DNA from: Pseudorhodobacter sp. PARRP1
GTDB lineage: Bacteria; Pseudomonadota; Alphaproteobacteria; Rhodobacterales; Rhodobacteraceae
Direction: 5' to 3'
Length of the DNA: 64,000 bases
NCBI GenBank assembly: GCA_002256245.1
Contig: NKIU01000008.1
Coordinates: forward strand, 53,333 to 117,332
In this document: piece after piece, positions 6,564-18,578 of the stretch
How the letters are laid out: each line of letters starts with the position of its first letter
How positions within the stretch are numbered: the first letter of the stretch is position 1
The notes under the pieces: model-generated
Told to the model about the DNA's origin: nothing
The model's database searches: none
What the model saw: only the letters and a program-made list of their open reading frames with translations
Translations under genes and position numbers: made by a program

Positions 6564-6869
6564 ATGCAGCACACCGCCCCGCTTGATCCGGCAGCCGCGC
6601 ACAGCGAACGCTTTGCGATCTGCGGCGATGTGGGCGCTGCGGTCTTTGCGCCTTGGATCACGCGCCATGCGCGCCGTCTTGGCCTGCGCGGCGCGATTTT
6701 GCGCCATGATGCCACGCGGTTGGAGATGGTTGTCACCGGCCTGCCCGACCTGCTGGATGCGATGGCGCTGGCCTGTAGCCTTGGCCCACGCGAGGTGTTG
6801 GTGGACCGGATTGATCGCGCGCCGATGCCCTTGCAAAACGCGAACGAATTTGCTTCGACTGCCGCTTAA
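6564..6869 (+). CDS. Acylphosphatase-like small protein (degenerate active site)
   Basis: RFAICGDV...FAPWITRHARRLGLRG...LEMVVTG...MALACSLGP pattern follows the acylphosphatase fold, but VQGVGFR and the catalytic Asn are not conserved. Confidence 0.6.
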   Translation: MQHTAPLDPAAAHSERFAICGDVGAAVFAPWITRHARRLGLRGAILRHDATRLEMVVTGLPDLLDAMALACSLGPREVLVDRIDRAPMPLQNANEFASTAA

Positions 6870-6883
6870 CATATGATCATATG
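6870..6883. promoter_or_regulatory. Candidate repressor operator (perfect 14-bp palindrome)
   Basis: CATATGATCATATG, an AT-rich palindrome in GC-rich DNA, 117 bp upstream of the Rieske gene start. Confidence 0.55.
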
Positions 6884-6999
6884 CAGAAGGGGCGCTGATT
6901 TTTTGGGCATCTGCCGCGGTGCGGGCTGGGCTGCTTTGCAATAGCCCTTCCGCTATCGCAGCTTGGCATGACAAATCAGCGTCGGAATGTGGGGAAAAC

Positions 7000-7608
7000 A
7001 TGTCGATCTGGATTGCCAACGGTCTGTCGCAAGATTTGCCGCCGGGCGTTGTGATGGCCGGGGCTTGGCGGGGGGCCGAGCTTGCGATCTGGCGCAGCGC
7101 CTCGGGGCGGCTCTCGGCTTGGGGGGATCGCTGCCCGCATCGCGGAATGCGGCTGTCGCATGGGTTTGTGCGCGGTGAGACGCTGTCGTGCATCTATCAC
7201 GGTTGGGTTTATGGCAGCGACGGCGGTTGTCGGAAGATCCCCGCGCATCCGGCGATGGTGCCCCCTGCCACGATCAAGGCCGAGGTTTATCAATGCGTTG
7301 AGGCGGGTGGGGTGATCTGGGTCGCCCCTGCGGCTGTTGAAAGTGACGCGCCCGATCTGGCGGGGCTGACTCCGGTGCGCTCGGTCACTTTGCGCGCGGA
7401 TCGCGGCGCTTTGGCGCGGGTGCTGGCGGGGGCTGTGGCCGAGGGCGATCTGTGGCGGGTGCCTGCGCTGGGCGCGGTGCTGGCGCTGCAAGACCGGGCG
7501 GAAGGGCTTGGCCTGCACGCGCTTTGCCATGATGCTGCGCAGCGCGTGGCGGTCAGCCGCTGGTTGGACGGCGTGTTGCGGCTGGCGGAAGAGGGGGCTT
7601 TGGCATGA
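7000..7608 (+). CDS. Stand-alone Rieske [2Fe-2S] protein of a split Rieske oxygenase
   Basis: DRCPHRG and SCIYHGW give the complete Cys-x-His/Cys-x2-His ligand set; the roughly 90-aa C-terminus has no mononuclear-Fe motif and no reductase domain. Confidence 0.85.
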   Translation: MSIWIANGLSQDLPPGVVMAGAWRGAELAIWRSASGRLSAWGDRCPHRGMRLSHGFVRGETLSCIYHGWVYGSDGGCRKIPAHPAMVPPATIKAEVYQCVEAGGVIWVAPAAVESDAPDLAGLTPVRSVTLRADRGALARVLAGAVAEGDLWRVPALGAVLALQDRAEGLGLHALCHDAAQRVAVSRWLDGVLRLAEEGALA

Positions 7609-8447
7609 TTGCGGCGGCGGTGCTGAACGAATGGTATCCGGTGGCGATGGCGGCGATGGTCGGGCCGTGGCCGGGGCGGGCCACCACGCTTTTGGGCCAT
7701 GATATCAATGTGTTCTCGGAAGGCGACAAAATCATCGTGCGCGGCGCGGGCGGCGATCTGGCGGTGACGCTGGCCTATGGCCATGTCTGGGCCTGCCCCG
7801 GCACCCCGGCGCATGATCTGTTCCCGGTGCCAGAGGCCGCACAGCCGGGGCGGCGGCTGGTCGATTGCGGCGCGGTGCGGGTGAAATGCTCGCCGCTGCG
7901 GGCGGTCGAAAATTTCCTCGATATCGCGCATTTCCCGTTTGTGCATACCGACGTTTTGGGTGCTGAGCCGCACACCGAAGTGGGGCGATATGAGGTGCAA
8001 ATCCGCGAGGACAGCGACGAGGTTTGGGCGACCAAGGTGCATTTCTACCAACCCCAAGCCGCGAAATCGGCGGCGGGGGGGATTGTGACGGAATATATGT
8101 ATCGCGTCGCCGCCTCGACCTCGGCGGTGCTGTATAAAACCTGCCCGAACAACCCCGATGAATGGGACGTGATCGGGATTTTCGTGCAACCCCTGACCGA
8201 GGAGTTGTGCGAGGTCTGGCCGTGGATGGCGCTGTTCGATGACACCACGCCGCAGGCCGATCTGATCCAGTTTCAGCAGATGATCTTCCTGCAAGACCGC
8301 TCAATTCTGGAAAACCAGATCCCGCGGCTGTTGCCTTTGGACCCCGGCAAGGAGATTCCGACGCAGGCTGACCTCACATCAATCGCCTATCGCCGCTGGC
8401 TGAAACGCAAGGGGCTGACCTATGGCGCGCAGATGGTGGCGGCATGA
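7605..8447 (+). CDS. Rieske-less mononuclear-iron oxygenase subunit (VanA-type catalytic domain; NdmC-like N-demethylase)
   Basis: LNEWYPVA start and a vestigial Rieske region without Cys/His ligands; ENFLDIAHFPFVH (2-His motif plus bridging Asp), QDRSILENQ, YRRWL; 280 aa. Confidence 0.8.
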   Translation: MIAAAVLNEWYPVAMAAMVGPWPGRATTLLGHDINVFSEGDKIIVRGAGGDLAVTLAYGHVWACPGTPAHDLFPVPEAAQPGRRLVDCGAVRVKCSPLRAVENFLDIAHFPFVHTDVLGAEPHTEVGRYEVQIREDSDEVWATKVHFYQPQAAKSAAGGIVTEYMYRVAASTSAVLYKTCPNNPDEWDVIGIFVQPLTEELCEVWPWMALFDDTTPQADLIQFQQMIFLQDRSILENQIPRLLPLDPGKEIPTQADLTSIAYRRWLKRKGLTYGAQMVAA

Positions 8448-9100
8448 AACTGTATGATTATGTGCTAAGCGCCAGTTGCTACAAAATCCGCCTGATGGCG
8501 GCGCTGATGGGCGTCAAGCTGCAGACCGAGGCGGTGGATTTCCACCCCGGTCGCGCGCATCGCAGCGCGGATTTCCGCAGCCTGAACCCCGCCGGAACGC
8601 TGCCGGTGCTGGTGGACGGTGATCTGGTGCTGACCGAAAGCACGGCGATGCTGGTGTATCTGGCACGGCCCGAATGGCTGGGGCAGAGCGCGGCAGAAGC
8701 GGCGCAAGTCCAGCAATGGCTGGCATTTTCGGCACGGCTGGGGGCCAGTTTGGGCATGGCGCGGCTGCATGACATGCTGCTTTATCCCGGCGATATTGAT
8801 GCGTTCCGGCGCGCAGGCGTGGAGTGTCTGCGCGAGCTTGACGCGCATCTGACCGAGGCGCGCTTTGCGGGGCGCACCTATCTGGTGGGCGATACCCCCA
8901 CCATCGCCGACATCGCCTGTTTTCCCAACGTGGCACTTGCCCCCGATGGCGGCGTTGGCCTCGACGATTACCCGTCGATCCGCCTGTGGTCGCGCGCCAT
9001 CCGCGCCCTGCCGGGGTTCATCGAGATGCCCGGCATCCACCGCCTGCACGAGTTGAAACCCGCGCCCGAGGCCGTCCCACCGCTGGAGACGCTGCTATGA
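8444..9100 (+). CDS. Glutathione S-transferase family protein (NdmE-like by context)
   Basis: MKLYDYVLSASCYKIRL, GTLPVLVDG, LTESTAML, TIADIA motifs; ATGA-coupled on both sides. Confidence 0.85.
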   Translation: MKLYDYVLSASCYKIRLMAALMGVKLQTEAVDFHPGRAHRSADFRSLNPAGTLPVLVDGDLVLTESTAMLVYLARPEWLGQSAAEAAQVQQWLAFSARLGASLGMARLHDMLLYPGDIDAFRRAGVECLRELDAHLTEARFAGRTYLVGDTPTIADIACFPNVALAPDGGVGLDDYPSIRLWSRAIRALPGFIEMPGIHRLHELKPAPEAVPPLETLL

Positions 9101-10455
9101 GCATCCTTCTGAAAAACTGCGCGGCGATTGTGCCCTCGGCATCCGATCTGGTGCTGGCGGGGCAGGATATGCTGATCGAGGGCAAGCAGATTGCCGCCAT
9201 CGGCCCCAACCTGCACGCGCCGGGGGCCGAGGTGATCGACGCCTCTGGCTGGTTCATCTACCCCGGCTTGGTCAACACGCATCACCATTTCTTTCAATGC
9301 TTTGTGCGCAACCGCGCCGATCTGGATTGGACCAAAATGTCGGTGATCGAATGGCTGGACCTGATCTATCCGATCTTCTCACGCCTGACCGAGGATCAGT
9401 TTTACCACGCCTCTGTCGTGGCTCTGGCCGAGTTGATCAAACACGGCTGCACCACGGCGTTCGATCACCAATACAACTTTCCCCGCCACGCAGGCAGCCG
9501 CATCGTGGATCGCCAGTTTGAAGCCGCCGATCTGTTCGGCATCCGCTTTCATGCGGGCCGGGGCGGCAATACCCTGCCGAAATCCGAAGGCTCCACGATC
9601 CCCGATGAGATGCTGGAAACCACGGATGAATTCATCGCCGATTGCGCGCGGCTGATTGACGCCTACCACGATGCCAGCCCCTTCAGCATGCGGCAGGTGG
9701 TGGTCTCGCCCTGCCAGCCGGTGAATTGCTACAAGGATACCTTCGTGGAATCCGTGCGGCTGGCGCGTGACAAGGGCGTGTTCCTGCACACCCATGTCGG
9801 TGAGGGCGAAAGCCCGGTGATCGCGGCGCGCACCGGGCGCAGGACGGTGCAATACCTTGAGGAGATGGGATTTTCCGGCCCCGATACCTTCTATGCGCAT
9901 TGCTGGGAATTGAGCCATGCCGAACTGGCGCGCATGGCTGCGACCAACACAGGCGTGTCGCATTGCCCCGAGCCTGTGTATCTGGTGGGGGCCGAAGTCA
10001 CCGATATTCCAGCGATGCAGGCGATGGGCTTGCGGATTGGTCTGGGCTGCGATGGGGCTGCGTCGAATGACAATTCCAACCTGATGCACACCATCCATTC
10101 GGGTTACATGCTGCAATGTCTGGTCGCCAATACGCGCCAGCATCCCGTGCCGGAACCAAGCGCGTTCCTTGGCTATGCCACGCAGGGCGGCGCAGACCTT
10201 TTGGGCCGCCGCGACCTTGGCCGCCTTGCCCCCGGCATGGCGGCGGACCTGTTTGCCATCGACACCCGCCGTCTGGAATATGTCGGCACCCGGCACGATC
10301 CGGCCAGCCTGATCCCCAAGGTGGGCATCGGCCGCCCGGTTGATATGACGATGATCAACGGCCGTATCGTCTGGCGTGACGGCCAATTCCCCGGCCTTGA
10401 TGAGCGCGATCTGTTCACAAAAGCCGAAGCATCCTTCCACTGCATCCTGTCCTGA
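9097..10455 (+). CDS. Metal-dependent amidohydrolase, 8-oxoguanine/guanine-deaminase-like
   Basis: PGLVNTHHHFFQ, FHAGRG, HTHVGE, GLGCDG, PGMAAD motifs; ATG at 9097 overlaps the GST stop. Confidence 0.85.
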   Translation: MSILLKNCAAIVPSASDLVLAGQDMLIEGKQIAAIGPNLHAPGAEVIDASGWFIYPGLVNTHHHFFQCFVRNRADLDWTKMSVIEWLDLIYPIFSRLTEDQFYHASVVALAELIKHGCTTAFDHQYNFPRHAGSRIVDRQFEAADLFGIRFHAGRGGNTLPKSEGSTIPDEMLETTDEFIADCARLIDAYHDASPFSMRQVVVSPCQPVNCYKDTFVESVRLARDKGVFLHTHVGEGESPVIAARTGRRTVQYLEEMGFSGPDTFYAHCWELSHAELARMAATNTGVSHCPEPVYLVGAEVTDIPAMQAMGLRIGLGCDGAASNDNSNLMHTIHSGYMLQCLVANTRQHPVPEPSAFLGYATQGGADLLGRRDLGRLAPGMAADLFAIDTRRLEYVGTRHDPASLIPKVGIGRPVDMTMINGRIVWRDGQFPGLDERDLFTKAEASFHCILS

Positions 10456-10479
10456 TCCCACAATCCCAAAGGAAACCCG

Positions 10480-11571
10480 ATGACCCAAACCCGCCGCTCT
10501 TTCCTGAAAACCTCGCTTGCCGCCAGCACCGCCTTGGCTTTGCCGCTGCCCGCCTTTGCCGAAGGCGAAGTGCTGAATGTGGCCCTGATCGTGCCCTCGC
10601 CCGCAGCCGACGTCGGCTGGTCGCACACGCTGGAACTTGGCACCAAGGCGTTGGAGGCCGAATATGGTGACAAGGTCAAGGTCACGCTGCTGGAGAATAT
10701 CGCCGAAGGCCCGGATGCCGACCGGATTATGAACAAGACCGTGGCCGACGGGAACACCTTCCTGATCCTCGGCTCGTTTGGCTATATGAACGGCGGGTTG
10801 AAACTGGCCAAGGCGCATCCGGAAGTGTCGATCCTGCATGCCTCGGGCTATCAGGTGGCCCCGAATTTCTCGCCGTTTGGCGCGCGCTATTATCAGGGCA
10901 CTTACCTGATGGGGATGGCCGCGGCGTCCTTGTCAAAGTCGAAGAAACTCGGCTGCGTGGGGGCCTTTGCGATCCCCGAACTGATCACCTCGATCAACGC
11001 CTTCACCTTGGGGGCGCAATCGGTGGACCCAAGCATTGAGGTGTCGGTGGTCTGGGTGAACTCTTGGTTCGATCCGGCGTCGGAACAAGAGGCCGCCAAG
11101 GCGCTGCTGGCGCAGGGCTGCGATGTGGTGTTCTCGAACGCGCAGGACACGCCTTCGGTGGTGGCGGCGTGTGAAGAGGCCGGGGCCTATGTGTTCAACC
11201 TGAACTCGTCGATGAAAACCTATGCGCCGAAGAAATATCTGGGCGTGGTGGGCACCGACTGGGCGCCGTATTTCAAGGCATCCGTCGCCGCACATCTGGC
11301 GGGCACCTTTGCCGGGGCAAGCGCGTGGCTGGGCATGGCCGACAACTGCGTGTTTGTCGCCGACTGGAACCCCGATATTGCCCCCGATATGGTGGCGAAG
11401 ATCGAGGCCGTTCACGCCACCCTGATGGACGGCAGCTTCAGCCCGTTCACTGGGCCTTTGACCAACCAAGACGGGGCCGAGGCTGTCGCTGCGGGTGTCA
11501 CCTTGGGCGATGACGCGATCCTGTCGATGGATTGGCATGTCAAGGGCGTGACCACGCCGCTGCCGAAGTAA
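10480..11571 (+). CDS. BMP-family (purine/nucleoside) ABC substrate-binding protein
   Basis: Twin-arginine leader TRRSFLK; DVGWSH, SFGYM, VWVNSWFDP motifs of the BMP/PnrA family. Confidence 0.88.
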   Translation: MTQTRRSFLKTSLAASTALALPLPAFAEGEVLNVALIVPSPAADVGWSHTLELGTKALEAEYGDKVKVTLLENIAEGPDADRIMNKTVADGNTFLILGSFGYMNGGLKLAKAHPEVSILHASGYQVAPNFSPFGARYYQGTYLMGMAAASLSKSKKLGCVGAFAIPELITSINAFTLGAQSVDPSIEVSVVWVNSWFDPASEQEAAKALLAQGCDVVFSNAQDTPSVVAACEEAGAYVFNLNSSMKTYAPKKYLGVVGTDWAPYFKASVAAHLAGTFAGASAWLGMADNCVFVADWNPDIAPDMVAKIEAVHATLMDGSFSPFTGPLTNQDGAEAVAAGVTLGDDAILSMDWHVKGVTTPLPK

Positions 11572-11575
11572 ACCC

Positions 11576-13066
11576 ATGGCCGCGCTGTTGTCTTTGCAAG
11601 CTGTGTCAAAGCGTTACGGCGCGGTGCAGGCCAATGCCGGGATCGACCTTGTGGTTGATCCCGGCTCGATCCATGCCATTCTGGGCGAAAATGGCGCGGG
11701 CAAATCCACGCTGATGAAGCTGATCTATGGCGTGGAATCCCCCGATGCCGGGGTGATGCTGTGGAAGGGCCAGCCGGTGAACCTTGCCAGCCCAGCCGAG
11801 GCGCGGGCGCATGGCATCGGCATGGTGTTTCAGCATTTCTCGCTGTTTGAAACGCTAAGCGTGGTGCAGAACATCGCGCTGATCGTGCCGGGCAAGCAGG
11901 CAGACCTCGCCCGCCGCATCCGGGCCTTGGGCGCGGAATTTGGCCTTGAGGTTGACCCCGAGGCGATGGTGCACGCGCTGTCGGTGGGAGAGCGGCAACG
12001 GGTGGAAATCATCCGTTGCCTGCTGCTGAACCCCGAACTGCTTATTCTGGACGAGCCGACATCAGTGCTGCCGCCGCAAAGCGTGGCGCGGTTGTTTGAG
12101 ACACTCAGGGCCTTGCAGGCGCGCGGCATGGCGATCTTGTTCATCAGCCATAAACTGGAAGAAATCAAAGAGTTATGCGACACCGCCACCATCCTGCGGG
12201 GTGGCCGCGTATCGGGCCGTGTCGATCCGCGCGGCCATTCGGCCAAGGATCTGGCAACGCTGATGATCGGCCGCGCCATGCCGCCGCCGTTGCCTGCAAC
12301 CGCGCAGGACCCGGGCGAGGCGTGGCTGGAACTGGCGGGGCTCAGCTATCGCAACGATGATCCGTTTGGCGTCTCGCTGCATGATCTGTCGCTACAGGCG
12401 CGCAGCGGCGAGATCGTTGGCATCGCGGGCATTTCCGGCAATGGCCAGCAGGAGTTGGCGGCGCTGATCTCGGGTGAAATCGCAGCGCAGGGCGCGGGGT
12501 TGCGGATGATGGGGCAGGGCGTGGGGCGTCTGGGCGTCGCCGCGCGCCGCCGTCTGGGCTTTGCCTTTGTGCCGGAAGAACGTTTGGGCCGCGGCGCTGT
12601 GCCGGAAATGTCTTTGGCCGACAACGCCTTGCTGACCGCCCATCGCGCGGGGCTGGTGGCGCGCGGCTTTATCCGTCGCGCGCCCGAGCGGGCCTTCACC
12701 GCCGCCATTATCACCCGCTATGACGTGCGCACGCCGGGGCCAGAGGCCGAGGCGGCGGCGCTGTCGGGCGGCAATCTGCAAAAGTTCATCATGGGGCGCG
12801 AAATGATGCTGGACCCCAAACTGTTGTTGGTGTCGCAGCCGACATGGGGCGTGGATATTGGGGCGGCCACCGAAATCCGCCAGCGCCTGATCGCGATGCG
12901 CAATGCGGGCGCGGCCATTCTGGTGATTTCCGAGGAGTTGGAGGAGTTGTTCCAGATCTGCGACCGCCTGCATGTGCTGCACAAGGGCCATCTGTCGCCG
13001 TCCCTGCCTGTGGCCGAGACCAATGCCGAGGCCGTGGGGGCCTATATGATCGGAAGTGCGGCATGA
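11576..13066 (+). CDS. Nucleoside-type ABC ATP-binding protein (two ABC domains)
   Basis: GENGAGKST, LSVGERQRVEI, second domain with LSGGNLQK and QPTWGVD. Confidence 0.92.
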   Translation: MAALLSLQAVSKRYGAVQANAGIDLVVDPGSIHAILGENGAGKSTLMKLIYGVESPDAGVMLWKGQPVNLASPAEARAHGIGMVFQHFSLFETLSVVQNIALIVPGKQADLARRIRALGAEFGLEVDPEAMVHALSVGERQRVEIIRCLLLNPELLILDEPTSVLPPQSVARLFETLRALQARGMAILFISHKLEEIKELCDTATILRGGRVSGRVDPRGHSAKDLATLMIGRAMPPPLPATAQDPGEAWLELAGLSYRNDDPFGVSLHDLSLQARSGEIVGIAGISGNGQQELAALISGEIAAQGAGLRMMGQGVGRLGVAARRRLGFAFVPEERLGRGAVPEMSLADNALLTAHRAGLVARGFIRRAPERAFTAAIITRYDVRTPGPEAEAAALSGGNLQKFIMGREMMLDPKLLLVSQPTWGVDIGAATEIRQRLIAMRNAGAAILVISEELEELFQICDRLHVLHKGHLSPSLPVAETNAEAVGAYMIGSAA

Positions 13067-14133
13067 GGATCAGCTTTGTCCGCCGGGATCACGCCTCGCG
13101 CCCCGCCATGCTGCTGGCCCCGGTGGTGGCCTTTGCCTGCGCGATTGTGGCGAGCGTGATCCTGTTCACCGCCTTGGGCAAAGCCCCCGGCCAAGCCTTG
13201 TATTCGCTGCTGCTGGAGCCGTTTCTGACGTGGTATAACTTTTCCGAAGTCTTGCTGAAAATGGCCCCGCTGCTGCTGATTGCCCAAGGGCTTGCCATCG
13301 GTTTTCGCGCCAATGTGTTCAACATCGGGGCCGAGGGGCAGTTGATTATCGGAGCCATCGCGGCTTCGGCTTTACCGGTCTGGTATCCGCAGGGCGACAG
13401 CGCTTTGATGCTGCCTGCGATGCTGGTGATGGGGGCAGGGGCGGGGATGGCTTGGGCCGCGATTGCCGCCATGTTCCGCACAAGGTTCAATGCCAATGAG
13501 ATTCTGGTGACGCTGATGCTGTCGCTGATCGCCGCGCAAGTGCTGAACTATCTGCTGCTGGGCCCGTGGAAAGACCCGCATGGCTTCAACTTTCCGCAAA
13601 GCGTGATGTTTCCCGATGCCGCCCTGCTGCCGATCCTGCTGCCGGGCACGCGGGTGAATATCTCGCTTTTGTTCGCGCTGGTGGCAAGCGTGTTGGCCTA
13701 TGTGCTGATGCGCCACCGCTTTGCCGGGTTTCAACTGCTGGTGGGTGGGCTTGCCCCCCGCGCGGCTCGCTATGCCGGTTTCAGTGAGGCCCGTGCCATT
13801 TGGCTAAGCCTGCTTTTGGGTGGGCTTGCGGCAGGGCTGGCGGGGGCTGCGGAGGTGGCGGGGCCGCTGGGGCAGTTGCAACGCTCGGTTTCCCTTGGCT
13901 ACGGCTATTCCGCGATCATTGTGGCTTACTTGGGCGGGTTGAACCCTTTGGGCATTGTGGTGTCGGCCTTTGTGATGTCGGTGATTTATATCGGCGGCGA
14001 CAATGCGATGGTGTCGGCGGATTTGCCGGTGGCCGCCGTCTGGGTGTTTCAGGGCCTGCTGCTGTGCTTTTACCTCGCCGGCCTGACCTTCATCCGTCAC
14101 CGTGTCAGCTTTAGTCGCAAGGCCCTGCCATGA
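13063..14133 (+). CDS. Nucleoside-type ABC permease
   Basis: FNIGAEGQ, NEILVTLML, GYGYSAIIVA motifs; ATGA overlap. Confidence 0.9.
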   Translation: MRISFVRRDHASRPAMLLAPVVAFACAIVASVILFTALGKAPGQALYSLLLEPFLTWYNFSEVLLKMAPLLLIAQGLAIGFRANVFNIGAEGQLIIGAIAASALPVWYPQGDSALMLPAMLVMGAGAGMAWAAIAAMFRTRFNANEILVTLMLSLIAAQVLNYLLLGPWKDPHGFNFPQSVMFPDAALLPILLPGTRVNISLLFALVASVLAYVLMRHRFAGFQLLVGGLAPRAARYAGFSEARAIWLSLLLGGLAAGLAGAAEVAGPLGQLQRSVSLGYGYSAIIVAYLGGLNPLGIVVSAFVMSVIYIGGDNAMVSADLPVAAVWVFQGLLLCFYLAGLTFIRHRVSFSRKALP

Positions 14134-15041
14134 ACGCTGTTGATTTCATTCTGGCGGGTATGCTGGCCGCCGCCACGCCGATGTTGCTGGCGGCCTTGGG
14201 CGAGATGGTGGTGGAGCGATCCGGCGTGTTGAACCTTGGGCTGGAGGGGATGATGGCCCTGGGTGCGGCTTTGGGGTTTATCACCACCTACAGCACGGGC
14301 AGCCATGCCTTGGGCTTTGTGGTGGCGGCGTTGGGCGGGGCGGCGCTGTCGCTGCTGTTTGCGCTGATCGTGCTGGGGTTTGTCGCCAATCAGGTGGCGG
14401 CGGGGCTGGCGATCGGGATTTTGGGCACCGGGCTGTCGTCGCTGTTTGGCAAGAATTTTGAAAGCCTGACGATTGACGGTTTGCCGAAGCTGGCGCTGCC
14501 GGGGCTGTCTGATCTGCCGGTGGTGGGGGTGTTGTTTGTGCAGGATGCGGTGGTCTGGGCCACCGCTGTGCTGGCGCTGGCGATCTGGGCGGTGATGACC
14601 CATTCGAAACTTGGCCTGATCATCCGCGCGGTGGGCGAGAACCCGCATGCGGCCCGCGCAATTGGCTTTGGGGTGCTGCGGGTGCGCTGCGGCGCGATTG
14701 CGTTTGGCGGCGCGCTTGCGGGCATCGCCGGGGCTTATGCGTCAACGGTTTACACGCCGCTGTGGGCCGATGGCATGATCGCCGGGCGCGGCTGGATCGC
14801 GCTGGCGCTGGTGGTGTTTGGCACCTGGATGACGGGCCGGGTGGTGTTTGGCGCGGTGCTGTTTGGTGCGTTGTCGCTGGGCGAGTTGACCACGCAAGCG
14901 GCGGGGGTGAACATCCCCTCGCAACTGTTGGCTTGCGTGCCCTATGTCGTGACGATTTTGATGCTGGCGGTGATTTCCTCGAACCGCAGGCGGATGCGGC
15001 TGAACACGATTGCCTCACTCGGCCAGCCGTTCGAGCGTTGA
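14130..15041 (+). CDS. Nucleoside-type ABC permease
   Basis: ERSGVLNLGLEGMM, RAVGENP, GRGWIALALV motifs. Confidence 0.9.
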   Translation: MNAVDFILAGMLAAATPMLLAALGEMVVERSGVLNLGLEGMMALGAALGFITTYSTGSHALGFVVAALGGAALSLLFALIVLGFVANQVAAGLAIGILGTGLSSLFGKNFESLTIDGLPKLALPGLSDLPVVGVLFVQDAVVWATAVLALAIWAVMTHSKLGLIIRAVGENPHAARAIGFGVLRVRCGAIAFGGALAGIAGAYASTVYTPLWADGMIAGRGWIALALVVFGTWMTGRVVFGAVLFGALSLGELTTQAAGVNIPSQLLACVPYVVTILMLAVISSNRRRMRLNTIASLGQPFER

Positions 15042-15818: not shown

Positions 15819-16168
15819 CTGCCGCGATAGGTCGAATAGGCGAAGGGCGAGATCAGCAGCGGCACATGGTAATGTGCCTCGGCATCCGCCACGCCGAAGC
15901 GGATCGGGATTTCATCCAGAAACAGCACCTCGGCACTGGTCTGACCCGTGCTGCGCAGGTAGTTGCCCGCGCAAAACACCAGCTCATAGCTGCCCGCCGT
16001 CAGCGCCTTGCCTTCCAGCATGGGCGCATCGGTGCGGCCATCGGCGTTGGTCACGGTCTCGGCAATCTTCTTGTGGCTGTTGCCGCCGACCCGGTAGAGC
16101 ATGATCTTCACCCCCGCCGCAGGCTTGCCGCGCGCCGTATCCAGCACATGCGTTGTCAACTTGCCCAT
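15815..16168 (-). CDS. uraH: 5-hydroxyisourate hydrolase (transthyretin-like)
   Basis: LTTHVLDT, TNADGR, HYHVPLL and C-terminal YRGS signature. Confidence 0.95.
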   Translation of the reverse strand: MGKLTTHVLDTARGKPAAGVKIMLYRVGGNSHKKIAETVTNADGRTDAPMLEGKALTAGSYELVFCAGNYLRSTGQTSAEVLFLDEIPIRFGVADAEAHYHVPLLISPFAYSTYRGS

Positions 16169-16323
16169 CATCGCCCCCGTTTTCTGCCGCGCGTATTTCT
16201 GCCAACCTAGCCAAACTTGCCCCTTGCCGCAGCCCCTGCCAAGCCGCAAAACTCCTTTCGGGATTATTTGATAAAACCTTTAGGATCTTCGATATAGTTT
16301 CGCCGAAGAAGAAGGAGAGTTTG

Positions 16324-17739
16324 ATGCCCCGCTACCCCCGTGATTTCCGTGGCTACGGCCCCGATGCCCCTGATGCGGCCTGGCCGGGCGGTGCCAAGAT
16401 CGCGGTGTCGGTGGTGTTGAACTACGAAGAGGGCGGCGAGAACAACATCCTGCACGGCGATGGCAGCTCGGAAGCGTTTTTGTCCGATATTGCAGGGGCT
16501 GCGCCTTGGCCCGGTCAGCGCCATTGGAACATGGAATCGATCTACGATTACGGCGCGCGCGCGGGCTTCTGGCGGTTGCACCGGCTGTTCACCGGCATGG
16601 AGATTCCGGTGACGATCTACGGTGTGTCCACCGCTTTGGCGCGCAACCCCGAGCAGGTGGCCGCGATGAAGGCCGCCGGGTGGGAGATCGCGTCGCACGG
16701 GCTGAAATGGGTCGATCACCGCGACATGCCCCTTGCAGAGGAGCGTGCCCAGATCGCAGAATCCATCCGCCTGCACACCGAAGTCGTAGGCACACCCCCG
16801 CGCGGCTGGTACACCGGGCGCTGCTCGGTCAATACCGTCGATCTGACCGCCGAGACCGGGCAATTCGACTGGATTTCCGACACTTACGACGACGATCTGC
16901 CCTATTGGCGCGAGGTCGGCGCGCGTGATCAGTTGGTGATCCCCTACACGCTGGAAGCCAACGACATGCGCTTTGCCACAGCGCCGGGTTACATCGAGGG
17001 CCAGCAGTTCTTCCAATACCTGAAAGACAGCTTTGACACCCTTTATGCCGAGGGCTGCGAGGGCCGCGCGAAGATGTTCTCGATCGGTCTGCACTGCCGC
17101 CTGATCGGACGCCCGGGCAAAATCGCAGGGCTCAAGCGCTTCCTCGACTATGCAAAATCCCACAATGACGTGTGGTTCCCCCGCCGGATCGAGATCGCCG
17201 AACATTGGGCAAAAACCCATCCGCACAAACGCTTCGCACGGCCTTCTCAGATGACACGCGAAGCTTTCGTTGCGGCTTATGGTCCCATTTTCGAACATTC
17301 ACCCTGGATCGCCGACCGCGCCTTCGATCTGGAACTTGGCCCCGCCCATGACAGCGCCACAGGCCTGCACAACGCGCTCGCCCGTATCTTCCGCTCAGCC
17401 AGCCCCGCAGAACGCTTGGGCGTGCTGCAAGCCCACCCCGATCTTGCCGGCAAACTCGCCGCCGCCAAACAACTGACCGCGGCATCCAGTGCCGAGCAGG
17501 CCAGCGCAGCCCTCGATGCGCTGAGCGATGCCGAGCGTGCCGCGTTCCAAAGCCTGAACGCGGCTTATGTCGCCAAACACGGGTTCCCCTTCATCATCGC
17601 CGTGCGCGATAACACCAAGGCCAGCATCCTTGCGGCTTTTCACGCCCGCATCGCGCATGACACCGAAACCGAACTGCAAACCGCCTGCATGCAGGTCGAA
17701 CGTATCGCCGAACTCCGCCTGAAGGACATCCTGCCATGA
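16324..17739 (+). CDS. puuE: Allantoinase PuuE fused to C-terminal OHCU decarboxylase (UraD)
   Basis: LNYEEGGE, ESIYDYGARAGFWR, SHGLKW, SIGLHCRLIGRPG followed by FEHSPWIA, AHPDLAG, SSAEQ, FPFIIAV, ERIAELRL; AAGGAG RBS. Confidence 0.92.
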   Translation: MPRYPRDFRGYGPDAPDAAWPGGAKIAVSVVLNYEEGGENNILHGDGSSEAFLSDIAGAAPWPGQRHWNMESIYDYGARAGFWRLHRLFTGMEIPVTIYGVSTALARNPEQVAAMKAAGWEIASHGLKWVDHRDMPLAEERAQIAESIRLHTEVVGTPPRGWYTGRCSVNTVDLTAETGQFDWISDTYDDDLPYWREVGARDQLVIPYTLEANDMRFATAPGYIEGQQFFQYLKDSFDTLYAEGCEGRAKMFSIGLHCRLIGRPGKIAGLKRFLDYAKSHNDVWFPRRIEIAEHWAKTHPHKRFARPSQMTREAFVAAYGPIFEHSPWIADRAFDLELGPAHDSATGLHNALARIFRSASPAERLGVLQAHPDLAGKLAAAKQLTAASSAEQASAALDALSDAERAAFQSLNAAYVAKHGFPFIIAVRDNTKASILAAFHARIAHDTETELQTACMQVERIAELRLKDILP

Positions 17740-18578
17740 CCGCTTACTACTCCCCCCCCGGTGGGTTGCCCGCGCAAACCACGCTGATGACCGGCCGCGC
17801 GGTGTTCACCGACGCCTATGCCTTCATCCCGAAGGGCTGCTTTTCCGATATCCTCACCAGTTATCTGCCGGGCTGGCGCGGCACCAAACTGTGGCTGATC
17901 GCGCGGCCGATGTCGGGGTTTTCCGAAACCTTCAGCCAATATGTGATGGAGGTGCAGCCGGGCGGCGGCTCTGACGCCCCCGATGCCGAAACCGGGGCCG
18001 AGCATTTCCTGTTTGTCACCGGCGGCCTGATCACCCTCACCATCGACGGTGTCGGCTATGAGATGGACGCAGGCGGCTACGCCTTCATCCCGCCGGGCGC
18101 GAAATGGCAGCTTCTGGCCGAAGGCACCGAACCCGCCCGCTTCCACTGGCTCCGCAAACTGTATGAACCCGCGCCGGGCGTCGCGATCCCGCCCGCCTTC
18201 GTGATCAACGAAAAGGATGTCGCACTCAGCATGATGCCCGACACAAACGGCGTCTGGGGCACCACCCGCTTTGTCGATCCGACCGACGTGCGCTACGACG
18301 CCCATGTCAACATCGTCACCTTCCAGCCCGGCGGCGTGATCCCGTTTGAAGAAACCCATGTGATGGAGCACGGGCTTTACGTGCTGGAAGGCAAAGCGGT
18401 TTACAAACTGAACAAGGATTGGGTCGAGGTTGAGGCCGGCGATTTCATGTGGCTGCGCGCCTATTGCCCGCAAGCCTGCTACGCCGCAGGGCCGGGCCCT
18501 TTCCGCTACCTTCTCTACAAGGATGTGAACCGCCACGCCAACCTGCGCGGGCCCGGCGGCTATCGCCCGACGCGTTGA
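17736..18578 (+). CDS. allE: (S)-ureidoglycine aminohydrolase-like bicupin (AllE family)
   Basis: Bicupin with ETFSQY, ETHVMEHGLYVLEG, LRAYCPQ; ATGA-coupled to puuE. Confidence 0.85.
   Translation: MTAYYSPPGGLPAQTTLMTGRAVFTDAYAFIPKGCFSDILTSYLPGWRGTKLWLIARPMSGFSETFSQYVMEVQPGGGSDAPDAETGAEHFLFVTGGLITLTIDGVGYEMDAGGYAFIPPGAKWQLLAEGTEPARFHWLRKLYEPAPGVAIPPAFVINEKDVALSMMPDTNGVWGTTRFVDPTDVRYDAHVNIVTFQPGGVIPFEETHVMEHGLYVLEGKAVYKLNKDWVEVEAGDFMWLRAYCPQACYAAGPGPFRYLLYKDVNRHANLRGPGGYRPTR

Follow-up and report, generated by a model that had tools for sequence, protein, structure and literature searches.

The operon studied here encodes a Rieske oxygenase but no electron-transfer reductase, and it lies in a 64,000-nt stretch of the genome of Pseudorhodobacter sp. 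PARRP1 (contig NKIU01000008.1, positions 53,333 to 117,332; G000:C5:53333-117332 in the numbering used below), referred to as the window. Nine plus-strand genes fill window positions 6564-15041 (Table 1), and their content as determined with Pfam and NCBIfam reproduced that given in an earlier note made from the DNA sequence. The Rieske, catalytic, glutathione S-transferase (GST) and amidohydrolase genes are joined by successive stop/start overlaps of the form ATGA, indicating translational coupling. Judged from the translations, the [2Fe-2S] cluster is on the stand-alone Rieske protein and the catalytic iron is on the NdmC-like subunit, with a GST-fold protein co-encoded. The nearest genome record was that of Cypionkella sinensis, at 98% identity.

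Table 1. Genes and candidate operator of the oxygenase operon, in window coordinates (aa, amino acids; nt, nucleotides)
Feature	Position	Strand	Evidence
Small acylphosphatase-fold protein, 101 aa from ATG at 6564	6564..6869	+	PF00708
Candidate operator, perfect 14-nt palindrome CATATGATCATATG	6870..6883	.	sequence read
Stand-alone Rieske [2Fe-2S] subunit, 202 aa	7000..7608	+	PF00355, E 5.7e-19
NdmC-like catalytic subunit, 280 aa	7605..8447	+	PF19112 VanA_C, E 7.5e-20
GST-fold protein, NdmE-like position	8444..9100	+	GST_N and GST_C matches
Amidohydrolase, 8-oxoguanine/guanine deaminase group	9097..10455	+	PF01979, E 2.2e-47
BMP-family (PnrA-like) periplasmic binding protein with Tat signal	10480..11571	+	PF02608, E 8.2e-35
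ABC transporter ATPase, two cassettes	11576..13066	+	PF00005, two stretches
ABC permease 1	13063..14133	+	PF02653
ABC permease 2	14130..15041	+	PF02653

No reductase was found at the operon. In Pfam scans of the whole genome, NAD_binding_1 (PF00175), Fer2 (PF00111), FAD_binding_6 (PF00970), Reductase_C (PF14759) and Flavin_Reduct (PF01613) had no match within the window, and Pyr_redox_2 (PF07992) was absent from it, the nearest match being at C5:25643, about 27 kb outside. This negative covers the six families named; flavodoxins and 4Fe-4S ferredoxins were not scanned, and genes past about 30 kb were not taken singly. In these scans the window was as the earlier note had described it, with no flavin/NAD(P)H reductase or plant-type ferredoxin domain in the operon or around it. 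The nine-gene order was retained whole or largely in 81 alphaproteobacterial loci (Rhodobacterales and Rhizobiales; catalytic protein identity of at least 69%), and tblastn and a reductase profile placed a PDR-type reductase in or beside the operon, within flanks of up to 10 kb, in none of the 81. The single reductase-profile match among them was partial and located at the far edge of locus L069. The unfused, reductase-less form had matches in at least 569 genome stretches of a one-genome-per-species collection, Rhizobium leguminosarum among them.

The Rieske domain occupies about residues 4-110 of the 202-residue protein, and the approximately 90 residues after it agree with where the earlier note had the protein end. 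A GGGGA stretch is present 6-7 nt 5' of the ATG, and an alternative GTG start at 6919 would yield a protein of 229 aa. The C-x-H and C-x2-H ligands were invariant among 40 homologues. The AlphaFold2 model (predicted local distance difference test score, pLDDT, 94.9) aligned over its full length to the complete Rieske oxygenase alpha subunits SxtT, GxtA, DdmC and NdmA; because of this full-length alignment, the tail is read as a truncated catalytic-domain stub and not as a new module. When longer relatives of the protein were sought, one Rieske and VanA_C fusion was the sole find. The protein was 41% identical to the N-terminus of the NdmD-type fusion of locus L093, and it is the counterpart of the N-terminal part of NdmD minus the reductase.

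The catalytic subunit contains the iron motif E-x3-D-x2-H-x4-H in its translation, and had neither a PF00355 match nor Rieske ligands. Its N-terminus was considered as a paralogue of the Rieske protein and rejected, the matches being weak, collinear and non-significant. The closest solved relatives of both halves were the saxitoxin Rieske oxygenases SxtT and GxtA, followed by NdmA; the E value was 1.4e-26 to SxtT for the Rieske half and 6.7e-23 to GxtA for the catalytic half. These relatives are VanA-type alpha3 enzymes with both domains on one chain, whereas the operon encodes two chains, each with a degenerate stub of the other domain. The GST aligned to the bacterial GST 3m3m, across its N-terminal S-x-x-C-Y-K-I motif as well as the ES motif, and it looks like an ordinary glutathione-binding GST. 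Its gene was retained in all 81 orthologous loci and in all 15 of the more distant paralogous loci described below.

A comparable division of labor is known from NdmCDE, the 7-methylxanthine N7-demethylase complex of Pseudomonas putida CBB5 (Summers et al., 2013, via PMC4408171). According to PMC4408171, NdmC is without a cluster, NdmD carries the cluster, and the GST-like NdmE is presumed to bring the two into alignment; the GST-fold protein is described there as obligatory, and the 2013 work is said to have pointed out that Sinorhizobium and Mesorhizobium have homologous clusters of unknown function. The operon has in common with NdmCDE a Rieske-less non-haem-iron subunit, a cluster on a second polypeptide, a GST-fold third protein and a purine-catabolic setting. 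To our knowledge, NdmCDE is the only studied Rieske oxygenase with the cluster domain outside the catalytic subunit. Unlike NdmD, the Rieske protein of the operon is free-standing and not fused to a reductase with FMN, NADH and plant-type [2Fe-2S] domains, and unlike NdmCDE, the operon adds an acylphosphatase-fold gene, a purine-deaminase-like amidohydrolase and a BMP-type importer. The likeness was drawn from the published description and the NdmD-type fusion of L093. The operon follows the NdmCDE design in an unfused form without the reductase.

Directly 3' of the operon, at window positions 16153-18578, lie the ureide-pathway genes for a PuuE allantoinase-OHCU decarboxylase fusion (528 aa) and then a bicupin, and the setting is therefore one of purine breakdown. 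The amidohydrolase scored 370 bits against the 8-oxoguanine deaminase model NF006055, under its cut-off of 532. The substrate would be purine-like and imported, as judged solely from the purine context. Nothing relevant on a characterised hydrolase or demethylase acting on methylguanine turned up in the literature searched.

The 15 paralogous loci (44-64% identity) indicate what kind of reductase serves this family. Five of them have a PDR-type FNR-[2Fe-2S] reductase: in L092 and L096 it is a separate gene 3' of the GST gene, and in L093 (574 aa), L104 and L105 it is fused behind the Rieske protein in the NdmD architecture, with the gene order catalytic, Rieske-reductase, GST. Since these relatives carry a PDR-type reductase, the native donor of the family was of the class IA type and is no longer encoded with the operon in the lineage of the window. 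Locus L092 (L092:3585-16073; G095:C1, about 2.62 Mb) encodes a full-length Rieske and VanA_C oxygenase and two separate Rieske/NdmC-like/GST triads, with a single PDR-type reductase between the triads; a BMP-type importer and an acylphosphatase-fold protein are encoded there as well. Several oxygenases apparently share this one reductase.

In the Pseudorhodobacter genome, Pfam scans and tblastn revealed only two FNR-Fer2 reductases, each inside another operon. A GbcB-like reductase (C24:689444-690511) adjoins a GbcA-like Rieske oxygenase in a glycine-betaine-type operon, and a DmmB-like reductase (C10:374209-375174) is located within a dimethylamine monooxygenase operon. The latter operon (L002:5153-10991; G000:C10) is complete and adjoins an amino-acid permease; its genes encode a GcvT-like protein, DmmA, the DmmB-like reductase and a haem-dependent N-demethylase subunit. 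A tblastn search with an NdmD-type fusion and two of the reductases encoded in the relatives' operons returned these two alone, nothing closer, and no NdmD-like reductase; such an enzyme elsewhere in the genome is what, in the earlier note, would have made the system ordinary. With the in-operon reductases of the relatives, the DmmB-like protein shared 36-38% identity and the GbcB-like protein 24-25%. Other possible donors in the genome included Fpr (C7, 273 aa), an ISC-type [2Fe-2S] ferredoxin (C7, 107 aa), a CysJ-like protein and a MocE-type Rieske ferredoxin.

Either of the two FNR-Fer2 enzymes could also contribute in the source genome, and a PDR-type reductase borrowed in this way as the physiological donor fits the related clusters, which use that type either fused or separate, and the DmmB-like protein, the closest homologue in the genome to their reductases. 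NdmD is itself shared by several oxygenases in P. putida (PMC4408171). Both candidates, however, belong to other substrate-specific operons, and the distribution across genomes speaks against this route as the conserved one. A DmmB-like orthologue was present in 15 of 26 operon-bearing genomes and missing from the other 11, and searches with single proteins, Pfam and the profile found no full-length FNR-Fer2 reductase in four of the 26 (Pleomorphomonas sp. NRK KF1, Alitabrizicola rongguiensis, a Tabrizicola metagenome-assembled chromosome and Oryzifoliimicrobium ureilyticus). In those four, NAD_binding_1 occurred only in Fpr-sized open reading frames (ORFs) or a CysJ-like protein, without Fer2 alongside, and a seven-sequence reductase profile gave partial matches or none. 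The conserved solution therefore cannot lie in a hidden partner of the NdmD/VanB type, although a borrowed PDR-type enzyme may operate in the source genome, where we consider it a rather unlikely physiological donor.

A different type of reductase was found in every operon-bearing genome tested (27 of 27). In the source genome it is a single-copy FAD ferredoxin-NAD(+) reductase of the HcaD/AndAa type, 401 aa, encoded at G000:C24:721107-722312 (L106:7108-8313). It contains Pyr_redox_2 and Reductase_C, is the sole Reductase_C-type enzyme of the genome, and matched HcaD best in NCBIfam (E 6e-92), followed by AndAa (E 1e-90), both of which are named there as ferredoxin-NAD(+) reductase subunits of multi-component dioxygenases. 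In the same scan, the ferredoxin subunits HcaC and AndAb matched the MocE-type Rieske ferredoxin of the genome. The neighbors of this orphan C24 gene are housekeeping genes for a pterin-4a-carbinolamine dehydratase, an RsmD-like methyltransferase, a HAD hydrolase and a methionine aminopeptidase, with no cognate oxygenase.

On balance, and with some reserve, we favor an NdmCDE-type split Rieske monooxygenase for a purine-like substrate that receives its electrons from a non-dedicated, unlinked reductase, most likely the C24 enzyme. Electrons would enter through such a reductase encoded away from the operon, and the C24 enzyme may pass electrons straight to the Rieske subunit, in the way that class IIB reductases reduce Rieske ferredoxins, or alternatively may use the ISC-type [2Fe-2S] ferredoxin as an intermediate. 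If NdmCDE is a guide, the Rieske cluster would then relay electrons to the non-haem iron of the NdmC-like subunit, and the GST-fold protein would hold the two subunits together. As to the identity of the donor, which we infer, the C24 HcaD-like enzyme is the best conserved candidate. The earlier note had likewise placed the electron source outside the operon, as a distant, shared reductase of the PDR/VanB type; the distant, non-dedicated source accords with the lack of a reductase in the operon and the window and of an NdmD-like one elsewhere, whereas the PDR/VanB type proved too narrow, being missing from four of the 26 genomes.

Class IIB dioxygenases (HcaCD, AndAaAb and BphA3A4 type), which pair a glutathione-reductase-type FAD reductase with a Rieske-type ferredoxin, also interpose a small, separate Rieske protein on the path from reductase to catalytic iron. 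In contrast to these systems, the Rieske protein of the operon is derived from the alpha subunit of an oxygenase, of which it retains a catalytic-domain stub, and the candidate reductase is unlinked and housekeeping; the Rieske protein probably stays docked and does not shuttle. Unlinked reductases are common among Rieske oxygenases. In the source genome, three more Rieske oxygenase alpha-subunit genes, all on the minus strand, were without an adjacent reductase (L005:6236-7369, L006:5496-7421 and L007:5259-6323); unlinked donors are the rule there. The Rieske oxygenase gene of L005 adjoins genes for an FMO-like flavoprotein and an OYE/Pyr_redox_2 fusion.

Several observations weigh against the C24 enzyme as the donor. 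The Rieske protein scored 68 bits against oxygenase alpha-subunit Rieske domains versus 23.5 bits against the Rieske ferredoxin AndAb (NCBIfam), and in its relatives the donor is the plant-type [2Fe-2S] domain of a PDR-type reductase, so that direct reduction by a glutathione-reductase-type enzyme is unproven. Of the four genomes that had no PDR-type reductase, three are drafts, and the fourth is a metagenome-assembled chromosome whose plasmids were possibly unbinned. Of 151 genomes sampled from the family, 150 had a Reductase_C match, with the operon or without it; the co-occurrence of the HcaD-like reductase with the operon is therefore permissive and not specific, and it was set aside as uninformative evidence for a link between the two.

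The electrons might instead pass along a generic chain from Fpr to the ISC-type [2Fe-2S] ferredoxin and on to the Rieske subunit. Both proteins are encoded in the source genome, an Fpr-like ORF and small Fer2 ORFs were present in all four genomes without a PDR-type reductase, and a [2Fe-2S] ferredoxin would play the part that the Fer2 domain has for the Rieske cluster of the fused relatives. The genes are housekeeping, however, and their presence is thus uninformative; we regard this chain as improbable.

The small protein encoded 5' of the Rieske gene scored 31.4 bits against PF00708 (cut-off 22.5), and 43 of 45 homologues passed the cut-off. Its AlphaFold2 model (pLDDT 87.5) had a beta-alpha-beta-beta-alpha-beta fold, and its top structural matches in the PDB were acylphosphatases; the position of the acylphosphatase catalytic-loop Arg is occupied by Ala or Pro, as judged by eye from the translation and the consensus. 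Most of the 81 orthologous loci (76 distinct sequences) have this gene immediately 5' of the one for the Rieske protein. Neither an invariant Cys in the homologue consensus nor a cofactor motif or cofactor-binding family match in Pfam was found. The profile of the protein set apart a subfamily of 166 clusters (clustered at 50% identity; E <=1e-10; 61-197 aa; P0122-P0271), all stand-alone and without a redox-domain fusion, and its single match in the source genome was the operon copy, no canonical acylphosphatase being picked up. A BLUF-like flavin-binding role was rejected: there was no BLUF match in Pfam, and BLUF structures ranked 39 or lower, far behind the acylphosphatases. Mutual exclusion of the small gene and an in-operon reductase, hinted at by tblastn, was also rejected, for the profile search found the small gene in the reductase-bearing loci L092 and L096.

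These features bear on a possibility raised in the earlier note, an unusual route involving the GST or the small protein. On such a route the GST, with glutathione, or the small protein would stand in for the reductase. Both proteins are conserved alongside the oxygenase genes in about 80 species, the GST retains residues typical of glutathione binding, and the small protein forms a subfamily of its own, all of which would suit a function in the electron route. Glutathione is a poor one-electron donor. Features of an electron carrier were lacking in both proteins. The small protein accompanies an in-operon reductase in L092 and L096, hence it is no substitute for one; the GST is ordinary-looking, and GST partners are equally present in reductase-bearing clusters. 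NdmE is described as structural in PMC4408171. This route found no support, and we consider it very improbable.

The sequence CATATGATCATATG sits in the 130-nt gap between the small gene and the Rieske gene, and had a single occurrence in the 4.35-Mb genome at up to one mismatch. Its palindrome core TATGATCATA was conserved in other Cypionkella loci, while the equivalent gap in Rhizobiales loci contained a different conserved stretch, TTTGATCA ... ATGCAA. The palindrome, a candidate read from the sequence, probably serves the oxygenase operon as its operator or promoter, in which case the small gene would be a separate transcription unit. Co-regulation of an unlinked reductase through a common operator was considered and rejected: the palindrome is unique in the genome, and therefore no unlinked reductase has it.

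A further, tentative possibility, which we hold to be doubtful, is that the operon represents an undescribed electron-transfer class of Rieske oxygenase in which a GST-docked, alpha-subunit-derived Rieske protein would take electrons straight from a housekeeping FAD reductase of the glutathione-reductase type, or by a route that requires the acylphosphatase-fold protein, with no dedicated reductase or ferredoxin in any carrier genome. The unfused, reductase-less form is far more widespread than NdmCDE and is unstudied. An NdmD/VanB-type partner is not the general solution for this form, and a dedicated reductase is not to be expected. Reconstitution, whether for a search for methylated-purine substrates or for a demethylation biocatalyst, depends on the right reductase, and the choice of donor is now narrowed to three candidates.

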